Shown here in pieces: positions 33,420 to 57,618 of a stretch of DNA of 64,000 nt. Origin of the DNA: Escherichia coli. Its GTDB lineage: Bacteria; Pseudomonadota; Gammaproteobacteria; Enterobacterales; Enterobacteriaceae. Numbering within the stretch: the first letter of the stretch is position 1; the number at the start of each line of letters is the position of its first letter. The stretch lies in NCBI RefSeq assembly GCF_965641715.1, contig NZ_OZ282453.1. The stretch is one strand, 5' to 3'. The notes under the pieces were generated by a model. That model was not told where the DNA came from. It searched no databases and saw only the letters and a list, made by a program, of their open reading frames with translations. A program made the position numbers and the translations under genes.

Positions 33420-34844
33420 TTACTGCATTAACAGGTAGATGGTGCTGTCGCCGCGCTGAATGTTCAGTGCCAGCACAGACGGTTTGCTGTCGAGAACTTT
33501 ACGCAGTTCAGCGATGTTTTTCACTGCCTGCTGGTTCGCGCCAATAATCACATCACCTTTCTTCAGGCCGATCTGCGCAGCCGGAGTGCCCGTTTTCACG
33601 TTGTTCACTACCACGCCCTGATCTTTGCCTTTGTTGCTCATCTCAGCACCTTCAATGCCGTTGAAGATGGAGCTGGAATCAACCTGATTCTGGCTGCTCT
33701 GCTGCAGTTCCAGATTCACGTTGACCTGCTTACCGTCGCGCAGCAAGCCCAGGGTCAGTTTGCTGCCCACCGGCATAGTACCCACCTGAGCACGCAGTGC
33801 GGCAAAGCTGCTGATCGGCTTACCGTTCAGTGAGGTGATCACATCACCCGCTTTAATGCCCGCTTTTGCAGCGGAGGAGTTAGGCAGAACCTGGCTTACG
33901 AAAGCACCGCGCTGGGCGTCAACTTTCATCGCTTTCGCCAGTTCGGAGTTCAGCTCAGTCCCCATAATACCCAGCTCACCGCGTTTCACCTGGCCGTATT
34001 CCACCATCTGCGAGGTCAGGTTTTTCACCATGTTGCTCGGGATAGCAAAACCGATACCGATGTTGCCGCCGTCCGGTGCGAGGATCGCGGTGTTGATACC
34101 GATCAGTTCGCCGTTCAGGTTAACCAGCGCACCACCGGAGTTACCACGGTTGATCGCTGCATCGGTCTGGATGAAGTTTTCGTAGTTTTCGGCATTCAGG
34201 CCGCTACGCCCCAGCGCAGAGACAATCCCGGAAGTTACCGTCTCGCCCAAACCAAACGGGTTACCAATCGCTACGGTGTAATCACCCACGCGCAGTGCAT
34301 CAGAATCCGCCATCTTAATTGCGGTCAAGTTTTTCGGGTTCTGGATTTGGATCAGCGCGATATCAGAGCGCGGATCTTTGCCAACCATCTTCGCGTCGAA
34401 CTTACGGCCATCGCTCAGTTGAACTTTAATGACCGTCGCGTTATCAACAACGTGGTTGTTGGTGACGACATAGCCTTTATCGGCATCAATGATGACGCCG
34501 GAACCCAGCGCCATGAATTTCTGTTGCTGGCCGCCACCATTACCGCCCTGGCCACCCTGGCAGAACGGAGAGCTCTGGAACGGAGAACCTTCCTGGCAGA
34601 ACGGAGAATCATCACCGAAGAACTGCTGGAAATTACGCGGCATACGCGGCGTATTAACGGTTGTGCTACCTTCTACGTTAATGCTGACCACTGAAGGCAT
34701 CACCTTTTCGAGCATCGGTGCAAGGCTTGGCATCTGCTGGGCTGTCGTTGCTGAAGAAGTCTCAGCCGCCGTTGCAGAGAGCGGAGATAACGCCAAACCT
34801 AAACTCAGAGCCAGTGCACTCAGTGCTAATGTGGTTTTTTTCAT
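33420..34844 (-). CDS. degP: Periplasmic serine endoprotease/chaperone DegP (HtrA)
   Basis: 474 aa ORF, signal peptide, trypsin-like protease domain (GNSGG) and two PDZ domains. Confidence 0.97.
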   Translation of the reverse strand: MKKTTLALSALALSLGLALSPLSATAAETSSATTAQQMPSLAPMLEKVMPSVVSINVEGSTTVNTPRMPRNFQQFFGDDSPFCQEGSPFQSSPFCQGGQGGNGGGQQQKFMALGSGVIIDADKGYVVTNNHVVDNATVIKVQLSDGRKFDAKMVGKDPRSDIALIQIQNPKNLTAIKMADSDALRVGDYTVAIGNPFGLGETVTSGIVSALGRSGLNAENYENFIQTDAAINRGNSGGALVNLNGELIGINTAILAPDGGNIGIGFAIPSNMVKNLTSQMVEYGQVKRGELGIMGTELNSELAKAMKVDAQRGAFVSQVLPNSSAAKAGIKAGDVITSLNGKPISSFAALRAQVGTMPVGSKLTLGLLRDGKQVNVNLELQQSSQNQVDSSSIFNGIEGAEMSNKGKDQGVVVNNVKTGTPAAQIGLKKGDVIIGANQQAVKNIAELRKVLDSKPSVLALNIQRGDSTIYLLMQ

Positions 34845-34885
34845 GTATTTCAGTCTCGATTAACAGATAACGCAAAATTGCTGTG

Positions 34886-54266: not shown

Positions 54267-54722
54267 ATGCAAGAAGGGCAAAACCGTAAAACATCGTCCC
54301 TGAGTATTCTCGCCATCGCTGGGGTGGAACCATATCAGGAGAAGCCGGGCGAAGAGTATATGAATGAAGCCCAGCTGGCGCACTTCCGTCGTATTCTGGA
54401 AGCATGGCGTAATCAACTCAGGGATGAAGTCGATCGCACCGTTACACATATGCAGGATGAAGCAGCCAACTTCCCGGACCCGGTAGACCGTGCAGCCCAG
54501 GAAGAAGAGTTCAGCCTCGAACTGCGTAACCGCGATCGCGAGCGTAAGCTGATCAAAAAGATCGAGAAGACGCTGAAAAAAGTGGAAGACGAAGATTTCG
54601 GCTACTGTGAATCCTGCGGTGTTGAAATTGGTATTCGCCGTCTGGAAGCGCGCCCGACAGCCGATCTGTGCATCGACTGCAAAACGCTGGCTGAAATTCG
54701 CGAAAAACAGATGGCTGGCTAA
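54267..54722 (+). CDS. dksA: RNA polymerase-binding transcription factor DksA
   Basis: 151 aa from [19 protein letters not shown]...; C4 zinc finger [25 protein letters not shown]. Confidence 0.96.
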
Positions 54723-54748: not shown

Positions 54749-54780
54749 CAGGCGGGAAATGCTCCCGCCTTATTTTTTGT
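54749..54780 (+). terminator. Rho-independent terminator downstream of dksA
   Basis: ggcggga aatgc tcccgcc perfect 7-bp stem followed by ttattttttgt. Confidence 0.8.
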
Positions 54781-54788
54781 TCAAAGAG

Positions 54789-55685
54789 ATGACAGACACA
54801 CACTATATTGGCCGCTTCGCCCCCTCTCCTTCCGGCGAGCTTCATTTTGGTTCTCTGATTGCTGCGCTTGGCAGCTATTTGCAGGCTCGCGCCCGGCAAG
54901 GTCGCTGGCTGGTACGCATAGAAGATATCGACCCGCCTCGTGAAGTTCCCGGTGCCGCAGAAACTATCCTGCGCCAGCTGGAACATTACGGCCTGCACTG
55001 GGACGGCGATGTTCTCTGGCAATCGCAACGTCACCACGCCTATCGCGAAGCACTCGCCTGGTTACATGAGCAAGGACTAAGTTATTACTGCACCTGCACG
55101 CGTGCACGTATTCAAAGCATTGGCGGTATTTACGACGGCCATTGCCGGGAATTGCATCATGGACCAGGCAACGCCGCAGTGCGTATCCGCCAGCAGCATC
55201 CGGTCACCCAGTTTACTGACCTGCTGCGCGGCATTATTCACGCCGACGAAAAACTGGCACGGGAAGATTTTATTATTCATCGCCGTGATGGTTTGTTTGC
55301 CTATAACCTGGCGGTGGTGGTCGATGATCACTTCCAGGGCGTGAGCGAAATTGTCCGCGGGGCAGATTTGATCGAACCGACAGTGCGGCAAATCTCGCTG
55401 TACCAGCTTTTTGGCTGGAAAGTGCCAGATTACATTCATCTGCCGCTGGCGCTTAATCCACAAGGCGCTAAACTTTCCAAGCAGAATCATGCGCCTGCGT
55501 TGCCGAAAGGCGATCCACGCCCGGTACTAATCGCGGCACTTCAATTTCTGGGGCAGCAGGCAGAAGCACACTGGCAGGATTTCAGCGTCGAGCAAATCCT
55601 TCAGTCAGCCGTCAAAAACTGGCGGCTTACCGCAGTGCCTGAGTCGGCAATTGTAAATTCAACATTCTCAAATGCGTCATGCTGA
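54789..55685 (+). CDS. gluQ: Glutamyl-Q tRNA(Asp) synthetase (GluQ-RS, YadB)
   Basis: 298 aa from [23 protein letters not shown]... (class I aaRS HIGH-like motif); the ATG at 54759 lies inside the dksA terminator loop so the start is placed at 54789 behind aaagag SD. Confidence 0.9.
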
Positions 55686-55744
55686 GCTATGATTAGCCGC
55701 TATTTTTTTGTCCTGAATGATGTTTGACACTACCGAGGTGTACT

Positions 55745-57142
55745 ATTTTTACCCGAGTCGCTAATTTTTGCCGCAAGGTGCTAAGCCGCGAGGAAAGCGA
55801 GGCTGAACAGGCAGTCGCCCGTCCACAGGTGACGGTGATCCCGCGTGAGCAGCATGCTATTTCCCGCAAAGATATCAGTGAAAATGCCCTGAAGGTAATG
55901 TACAGGCTCAATAAAGCGGGATACGAAGCCTGGCTGGTTGGCGGCGGCGTGCGCGACCTGTTACTTGGCAAAAAGCCGAAAGACTTTGACGTAACCACTA
56001 ACGCCACGCCTGAGCAGGTGCGCAAACTGTTCCGTAACTGCCGCCTGGTGGGTCGCCGTTTCCGTCTGGCTCATGTGATGTTTGGCCCAGAGATTATCGA
56101 AGTTGCGACCTTCCGTGGACACCACGAAGGTAACGTCAGCGACCGCACGACCTCCCAACGCGGGCAAAACGGCATGTTGCTGCGCGACAACATTTTCGGC
56201 TCCATCGAAGAAGACGCCCAGCGCCGCGATTTCACTATCAACAGCCTGTATTACAGCGTAGCGGATTTTACCGTCCGTGATTACGTTGGCGGTATGAAGG
56301 ATCTGAAGGACGGCGTTATCCGTCTGATTGGTAACCCGGAAACGCGCTACCGTGAAGATCCGGTACGTATGCTGCGCGCGGTACGTTTTGCCGCCAAATT
56401 GGGTATGCGCATCAGCCCGGAAACCGCAGAACCGATCCCTCGCCTCGCTACCCTGCTGAACGATATCCCACCGGCACGCCTGTTTGAAGAATCGCTTAAA
56501 CTGCTACAAGCGGGCTACGGTTACGAAACCTATAAGCTGCTGTGTGAATATCATCTGTTCCAGCCACTGTTCCCGACCATTACCCGCTACTTCACGGAAA
56601 ATGGCGACAGCCCGATGGAGCGGATCATTGAGCAGGTACTGAAGAACACCGATACGCGTATTCATAACGATATGCGCGTTAACCCGGCGTTTTTGTTTGC
56701 CGCCATGTTCTGGTACCCACTGCTGGAGACGGCACAGAAGATCGCCCAGGAAAGCGGCCTGACCTATCACGACGCTTTCGCGCTGGCGATGAACGACGTG
56801 CTGGACGAAGCCTGCCGTTCACTGGCAATCCCGAAACGTCTGACGACGTTAACCCGCGATATCTGGCAGTTGCAGTTGCGTATGTCCCGACGTCAGGGTA
56901 AACGTGCATGGAAACTGCTGGAGCATCCTAAGTTCCGTGCGGCTTATGACCTGTTGGCCTTGCGAGCTGAAGTTGAACGTAACGCTGAACTGCAGCGTCT
57001 GGTGAAATGGTGGGGTGAGTTCCAGGTTTCCGCGCCACCAGACCAAAAAGGGATGCTCAACGAGCTGGATGAAGAACCGTCACCGCGTCGCCGTACTCGT
57101 CGTCCACGCAAACGCGCACCGCGTCGTGAGGGTACCGCATGA
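55745..57142 (+). CDS. pcnB: Poly(A) polymerase I
   Basis: ORF open from stop at 55718; no in-frame ATG before the conserved N-terminus; ATT at 55745 preceded by gaggtg SD is taken as the start (literature-reported AUU start), TTG at 55724 is the alternative; 465 aa. Confidence 0.9.
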
Positions 57143-57618
57143 CAGTGGCGTATATTGCCATAGGCAGCAATCTGGCCTCTCCGCTGGAGCAGGTCAATGC
57201 TGCCCTGAAAGCATTAGGCGATATCCCTGAAAGCCACATTCTTACCGTTTCTTCGTTTTACCGCACCCCACCGCTGGGGCCGCAAGATCAACCCGATTAC
57301 TTAAACGCAGCCGTGGCGCTGGAAACCTCTCTTGCACCTGAAGAGCTACTCAATCACACACAGCGTATTGAATTGCAGCAAGGTCGCGTCCGTAAAGCTG
57401 AACGCTGGGGACCGCGCACGCTGGATCTCGACATCATGCTGTTTGGTAATGAAGTGATAAATACTGAACGACTGACCGTACCGCACTACGATATGAAAAA
57501 TCGTGGATTTATGCTGTGGCCGCTGTTTGAAATCGCGCCAGAGTTGGTGTTTCCTGATGGGGAAACATTACGTGAAATACTCACTTCACTAGCAGTACCA
57601 CAACCTGCCATCTGGTAA
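57139..57618 (+). CDS. folK: 2-amino-4-hydroxy-6-hydroxymethyldihydropteridine pyrophosphokinase
   Basis: 159 aa ORF ([19 protein letters not shown]...); 4-nt overlap with pcnB. Confidence 0.96.

Follow-up and report, generated by a model that had tools for sequence, protein, structure and literature searches.

The AUU initiation codon of pcnB in Escherichia coli and its conservation among the Enterobacteriaceae

The gene examined here, in a window of 64,000 nucleotides of Escherichia coli DNA (the whole stretch that was analysed), is very probably an ordinary E. coli pcnB whose product, poly(A) polymerase I (PAP I), is translated as a protein of 465 residues from an AUU codon at 55745, with the Shine-Dalgarno (SD) sequence GAGGUG 4 nt upstream and with the weakness of the start keeping PAP I scarce. 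The AUU start of pcnB dates in the literature from 2002 and has been adopted in curated annotation, and nothing in this analysis changes current understanding. That AUU is the experimentally determined and expression-limiting start, together with the low copy number and the toxicity of the enzyme, is taken from the literature, namely from the work of Binns and Masters (2002, PMID 12068810) as it is reported in many citing papers, among them PMC2939334, PMC3561954 and bioRxiv 10.1101/063800. The initial annotation, which was made from the sequence alone, had proposed that a rare AUU initiator keeps PAP I levels low, and this is in line with what those citing papers attribute to Binns and Masters.

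The gene order on the + strand of this Escherichia coli DNA is sfsA, dksA, gluQ, pcnB, folK. The pcnB frame, read directly and checked by script, runs TGT TTG ACA CTA CCG AGG TGT ACT from the upstream in-frame stop to the ATT, and the only start-like codons between the TGA and the conserved N-terminus are the TTG at 55724 and the ATT at 55745. The claim of the initial annotation that no ATG precedes that N-terminus was confirmed by script, coordinates included; two ATGs, at 55717 and 55720, do not lie in the pcnB frame. An in-frame ATG with an SD sequence upstream of 55745 was looked for, and there is none in the E. coli frame back to the TGA. The six-frame track had been said to pick the TTG, and the mechanical ORF list does open pcnB there, at 55724, to give 472 aa. 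By chance a 27-nt stretch without an ATG is unremarkable; the conservation is the remarkable part. The features of the pcnB frame are as follows.

55718..55720, + strand: in-frame TGA that closes the pcnB frame upstream (direct reading and script)
55724..55726, + strand: in-frame TTG, the start taken by longest-ORF callers (472-aa form) and very probably not the real start; no SD sequence, present in 26/80 species
55735..55740, + strand: Shine-Dalgarno sequence GAGGTG, 4 nt upstream of the ATT; present in 80/80 species
55745..55747, + strand: ATT (AUU), very probably the initiation codon of pcnB (80/80 species, RefSeq start in three genomes, literature)
55745..57142, + strand: pcnB coding sequence, poly(A) polymerase I, 465 aa plus stop (NF008634.1; near-identical to PDB 3AQK/3AQL/3AQM from residue 28/29)
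55748..55780, + strand: codons 2-12, an invariant peptide with scarce synonymous variation (80 species, third-position entropy)
55778..55780, + strand: in-frame GTG, codon 12, start of the older 454-aa annotation; no usable SD sequence
55829..55831, + strand: GTG, codon 29, where variable linker and conserved core meet; also the residue with which one crystallised chain begins (PDB 3AQK, 80-species alignment, AF2)
55898..55900, + strand: first in-frame ATG, codon 52, 51 codons past the ATT; start of the 414-aa form

There is a further in-frame GTG at 55835.

The translated frame matches the NCBIfam equivalog NF008634.1 with 996.3 bits against a cut-off of 702, residues 1-464 lying on positions 1-468 of the 469 in the profile, and it matches PDB 3AQK, 3AQL and 3AQM from residue 28/29 to 442 (E ~1e-284). 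The conserved neighbourhood dksA-gluQ-pcnB-folK is present. The pcnB of E. coli K-12 (b0143) is the same gene with the same start, SD sequence, ATT and neighbours, nothing of substance being different, and the annotated gene of MG1655 has 1398 nt, equal to the ORF from ATT to stop in the window. The 65-nt stretch from 55716 to 55780 recurs unchanged in 5416 complete E. coli genomes out of 5424, K-12 strains included; the 501-base gluQ-pcnB junction (55500-56000) is 100% identical to that of strain 2013C-4991 and is present in 5424 of 5426 complete genomes. Three of the ~5420 copies of the locus are on records classed as plasmids, e.g. the 404-kb NZ_AP023206.1, perhaps as large replicons derived from the chromosome or through mis-assignment of contigs. 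The features that flank the gene are given below.

54759..55685, + strand: gluQ, tRNA glutamyl-Q synthetase, the upstream neighbour, the 3' end of which carries the pcnB promoter region (ORF list, RefSeq)
55665..55693, + strand: TTCTCA-17-TATGAT, a sigma-70-like promoter match within the 3' end of gluQ; 55300-56000 holds no other promoter-like match
57139..57618, + strand: folK, the downstream neighbour, the ATG of which overlaps the pcnB stop (ATGA, 57139-57142) (ORF list, RefSeq)

The promoter match probably corresponds to pB, the major promoter described in the literature, in which case transcription would start near 55700; among the 80 species compared below, TATGAT is found within 120 nt upstream of the ATT in 70, at a variable distance. 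The start of gluQ is itself annotated in two ways, as 927 nt from the ATG at 54759 (308 aa) in the RefSeq record of MG1655 and as 897 nt from the ATG at 54789 (298 aa) by PGAP in other strains. The first codon of folK varies as well, being ATG in 38 and GTG in 31 of 78 aligned species.

The candidates for the start were compared by pairing the 20 nt upstream of each with the 3' end of 16S rRNA, 2000 neighbouring positions serving as background (5th percentile, -6.4 kcal/mol). The initial annotation had pointed to a GAGGTG in front of the ATT, and the motif is indeed found at 55735-55740, 4 nt before 55745; the duplex there reaches -7.2 kcal/mol, beyond the 5th percentile of the background, and ends 4 nt before the codon. 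The values elsewhere were +0.4 kcal/mol for TTG 55724, +0.5 kcal/mol for GTG 55778, -2.6 kcal/mol with a spacing of 13 for GTG 55829 and -3.9 kcal/mol with a spacing of 0 for ATG 55898, where the SD-like GAAGGTA abuts the codon. Among the five in-frame candidates a ribosome-binding site is present at the ATT only. By the duplex calculation this site is fairly good, whereas it is described as 'poor' in the literature (PMC3561954 and a 2022 paper on PAP I). Folding of 55700-55800 gave -18.5 kcal/mol (z = +0.64), no better than shuffled sequences, so that no stable RNA structure was found in this stretch, and there was no match to an Rfam family near pcnB. A weak hairpin between the SD sequence (GGUG) and codons 2-3 (UACC), with the AUU in its loop, is not claimed, its invariant arms precluding a covariation test. 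An out-of-frame small ORF (ATGATG..., 55717..55764, +) was also considered as a conserved element and rejected, having no SD sequence and an ATG in 11/80 species only. This ORF of 15 codons spans the pcnB SD sequence and the ATT, ends with a TAA 17 nt past the ATT and is probably non-functional. Elsewhere in the window there were matches to Rfam families at gathering score, all of them ordinary E. coli features.

572-648, - strand: naRNA4
26596-26682, - strand: t44
34839-34884, - strand: HtrA 5' UTR thermometer

Conservation was assessed in 80 Enterobacteriaceae loci with 86-100% protein identity, obtained in one scan of species-representative genomes. The aligned start codon is ATT in all 80, and in all 80 GAGGTG lies exactly 4 nt upstream of it. 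The peptide of residues 2-13 is identical across the set, and wherever codons 2-12 differ in nucleotides the change is synonymous and in the third position; judged from the alignment, such synonymous-only change after the ATT is the signature of a translated sequence under purifying selection at the level of the protein. Synonymous change itself is scarce here, with a third-position entropy of 0.19 bits in codons 2-12 vs 0.90 bits in codons 30-80 (p = 1.2e-4). A single codon was used in all 80 species at 10 of 100 invariant-residue codons, and seven of these 10 are within codons 1-12, where a rare CGA is among the invariant codons. The start ATT is the only monomorphic one of five invariant Ile codons, the other four all alternating between ATT and ATC. 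The controls gave mixed results: the same suppression of synonymous change at the 5' end was seen in dksA (0.00 vs 0.51 bits in codons 2-12 and 30-80, 60 species genomes) and was absent from folK and gluQ. The low synonymous variation in codons 2-12 of pcnB is gene-specific, not unique.

54267-54302, + strand: codons 1-12 of dksA, with essentially no synonymous variation in codons 2-12 at invariant-residue codons

The ATT need not be the sole start in every relative, given what is found in Salmonella. In Salmonella enterica diarizonae and arizonae (L022 and L023) an ATG lies in frame 7 codons (21 nt) before the ATT. This ATG (1480-1482, with the ATT at 1501) is at the position of the E. coli TTG, follows a TAA and has no SD sequence, and the GAGGTG-N4-ATT arrangement is kept. 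The Salmonella enterica forms include one of 472 aa (P0027, representing a cluster of 2921 sequences) and one of 465 aa (P0058).

Beyond this set the arrangement can be followed into more distant homologues. Three with 62-67% identity (L084, L085 and L088) have GAGGTG-N4-ATT, and in L084 the ATT is the start in the deposited annotation. At 55% identity (L086) AGAGGA is followed by ATT ATT; at 54% and 50% (L087 and L089) the aligned codon is ATC and there is no canonical start that could be used, and at 48% (L090) there is a GTG start three codons earlier, directly after a stop. The locus with 54% identity has the same neighbourhood order, dksA-gluQ-pcnB-folK. In L085 (GCA_014218195.1, 67% identity) the pcnB at 1201-2698 is called as two ORFs of 316 and 150 aa, which points to a frameshift or pseudogene, or to an error in the assembly. 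In a protein alignment the homologues with canonical Met or Val starts have their N-terminus 0-3 residues from Ile1 of E. coli, and because they begin so close to it the N-terminus of the protein belongs at the ATT position family-wide, ATT being the codon with which the enterobacterial lineage starts there. In the distant relatives the stretch encoding residues 2-13 has diverged in nucleotides, with a similar hydrophobic and basic pattern kept at the N-terminus. The features expected of an AUU-initiated gene are present: an in-frame AUU stands where the conserved protein begins, with the N-termini of homologues aligning there, and GAGGTG, fixed in 80/80 species, lies at a functional spacing of 4 nt.

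Other readings of this 5' end have to be weighed against initiation at AUU. Were translation to begin at TTG 55724, the product would have 472 aa and the ATT would be merely an internal Ile codon, a reading that is highly improbable. Although the TTG is the first canonical start past the in-frame stop, it lacks an SD sequence and is found at the E. coli position in 26/80 species only, and 43 of the 80 have neither ATG nor GTG nor TTG in the interval from the ATT back to the nearest in-frame stop upstream; an in-frame stop is found 15-60 nt before the ATT in most species and 15-24 nt before it in several. The 472-aa form is deposited on at least 1000 contigs and a UUG start is mentioned in the introduction of PMC3561954, but in RefSeq and in the curated model the protein begins at the ATT. 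Should the promoter match at 55665-55693 be pB, the TTG would be part of the transcript. The sequence upstream of the SD sequence nevertheless differs among the 80 species by substitutions and indels, and the segment between TTG and ATT is, except for the SD sequence, unconserved as protein. An internal Ile codon would moreover be expected to vary between ATT and ATC in the way that the other four do. A start at GTG 55778 (454 aa), with the conserved block upstream of it a non-coding regulatory element acting at the level of nucleotides, is scarcely credible. No SD sequence lies at a usable distance from this GTG, which is itself invariant in 80/80 species, and the literature puts the start at AUU (PMC2939334), whereas the 454-aa form is that of the original O157 annotation and is found on at least 1000 contigs. 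The low synonymous variation in codons 2-12 is something that a non-coding element could also produce, yet the changes there are all synonymous and in the third position, and the peptide pattern is kept at the N-termini of distant homologues with canonical starts despite nucleotide divergence. The choice of the ATT at 55745 in the initial annotation thus holds up, with an SD sequence only there, SD-N4-ATT in 80/80 species, selection on the codons downstream and agreement of the curated models. A further reading leaves the start at the AUU and takes the invariant 46-nt block from GAGGUG to codon 12 (55735-55780) as a translational operator, tuning the response of the AUU to IF3 level, growth rate or a bound factor, as well as encoding a conserved amphipathic leader peptide that the enzyme subsequently loses. 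Seven of the 10 fully monomorphic codons of the part analysed are within codons 1-12, the invariant rare CGA included, and the protein as purified and crystallised lacks the leader; the same suppression of synonymous change is however seen at the 5' end of dksA, and no stable or covarying RNA structure was found at 55700-55800. The operator is at best a tentative proposal and is rather unlikely.

Initiation at the AUU has also to be set beside what is known of the N-terminus of the protein. The 2022 paper, in which PAP I is given as a 473-residue protein, reports the loss of a 17-residue leader by cleavage after translation, and the crystallised chains begin at V29 (PDB 3AQK) or Q28 (3AQL/3AQM) in the numbering of the ATT form. 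The PDB sequences are uninformative on the N-terminus, the constructs beginning at residue 28/29, and in the literature searched no N-terminal protein sequence beginning at the AUU-encoded Met was found, only the statement on the 17-residue leader. N-terminal protein data starting elsewhere, which the initial annotation had named as evidence against the ATT, do formally exist in the loss of the leader and the chains from residue 28/29, but are read here as the outcome of proteolysis and not of another start. Residues 2-13 (55748-55783) are predicted by AF2 as a low-confidence helix that is not packed on the core, and they are absent from the purified and crystallised enzyme; pLDDT is <50 over residues 11-25, and from around residue 30 onwards it is >90. 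At codon 29 the conserved core takes over from a variable linker (codons 14-28) that is predicted to be disordered. This codon is ATG in 73/80 species and GTG in 3/80, E. coli having GTG, and 17 residues counted from the old GTG start at 55778 end, by the arithmetic of the present analysis, exactly at this codon (55829). A shorter PAP I made besides the AUU form, by internal initiation at GTG 55829 or at ATG 55898 from the sigma-S promoter pS1, would account for a second band on western blots and for the N-terminus of the purified enzyme, and is quite unlikely. The ATG at 55898 was first proposed as the start by Liu and Parkinson, according to PMC2939334, where a possible short isoform from that ATG is discussed and two bands are noted; the SD-like sequence of this ATG abuts the codon, however, and its product would miss the invariant core residues H37, A48 and V51. 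Codon 29 is a canonical start in 76/80 species and coincides both with the start of a crystallised chain and with the end of the reported leader as counted from the old GTG. An internal start there is nonetheless unlikely, because the codon has no SD sequence (the duplex is weak and 13 nt away), because Met or Val at this position is not conserved outside the Enterobacteriaceae and because a junction of disordered linker and folded core is a typical site of proteolysis. What the 2022 paper describes is cleavage, not a second start, and proteolysis of a flexible linker is the simpler reading.

Databases and gene callers differ in how they treat the gene. RefSeq places the start of pcnB at the ATT in NZ_CP027355.1, NC_000913.3 (MG1655) and NZ_AP027764.1, and the UniProt entry PCNB_ECOLI is the 465-aa form. 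A comparison with curated PcnB N-termini, which the initial annotation had suggested as a check, gave the 465-aa ATT form in RefSeq, UniProt and NF008634 alike. Counts of the contigs that carry identical protein forms in public collections are as follows.

465-aa form, start ATT: at least 1000 contigs
472-aa form, start TTG: at least 1000 contigs
454-aa form, start GTG: at least 1000 contigs; original O157 annotation
414-aa form, start ATG: 39 contigs

The expectation that automated callers will mis-start pcnB is therefore borne out for ab initio callers by the 472-aa and 454-aa forms, but not for RefSeq PGAP: across 60 RefSeq E. coli genomes, sampled at even spacing, there was no annotation over 55696-55744, so that a TTG start was found in 0/60.

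In published work the AUU has been called 'the actual translation start codon', with promoters mapped relative to it (PMC2939334). PMC3561954 is inconsistent, giving a UUG start in its introduction and AUU in its discussion; it holds that the AUU limits PAP I synthesis and that homologues in many Proteobacteria are possible users of AUU as well. The same paper puts PAP I at ~30-50 molecules per cell and its over-production as lethal, via polyadenylation of mature tRNAs. According to bioRxiv 10.1101/063800, non-canonical starts have been confirmed for just two E. coli genes, infC and pcnB, and initiation at AUU, in a generic measurement, is ~1-2% of that at AUG. The best-supported mechanism can be put in these terms. 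The 30S subunit, positioned by the SD sequence, would initiate at the AUU, a near-cognate codon that pairs imperfectly with the initiator tRNA, and IF3 would reject complexes formed on it, as general knowledge of initiation leads one to expect for pcnB. The output would be a small fraction of that from the same site with AUG, with very little protein made despite a reasonably good ribosome-binding site, and PAP I would be held at a few tens of molecules per cell. The scarcity matters because excess PAP I polyadenylates mature tRNAs and so kills the cell.

Two known systems invite comparison. The infC gene, which encodes IF3, is like pcnB AUU-initiated in E. coli, and in both genes the AUU lowers initiation and would be discriminated against by IF3. 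The infC gene differs in forming a closed autoregulatory loop in which the product is the discriminator, whereas PAP I is not known to take part in the reading of its own start codon; the AUU of pcnB acts as a fixed throttle that may follow the availability of IF3. In ebpA of Enterococcus faecalis (PMC4447247) a rare ATT initiator likewise attenuates expression and automated annotation likewise mis-assigned the start, although ebpA encodes a pilus tip protein in an unrelated organism and was mis-annotated to a downstream ATG rather than to an upstream TTG.

There are thus four N-termini (465, 472, 454 and 414 aa) in public databases for one protein, and recent papers still number the residues of PAP I from the wrong start. 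The 465-aa form is the right basis for the design of constructs, the mapping of phosphosites and the comparison of N-termini. For the cell, the weak start codon helps to hold a potentially lethal enzyme at a few dozen copies.
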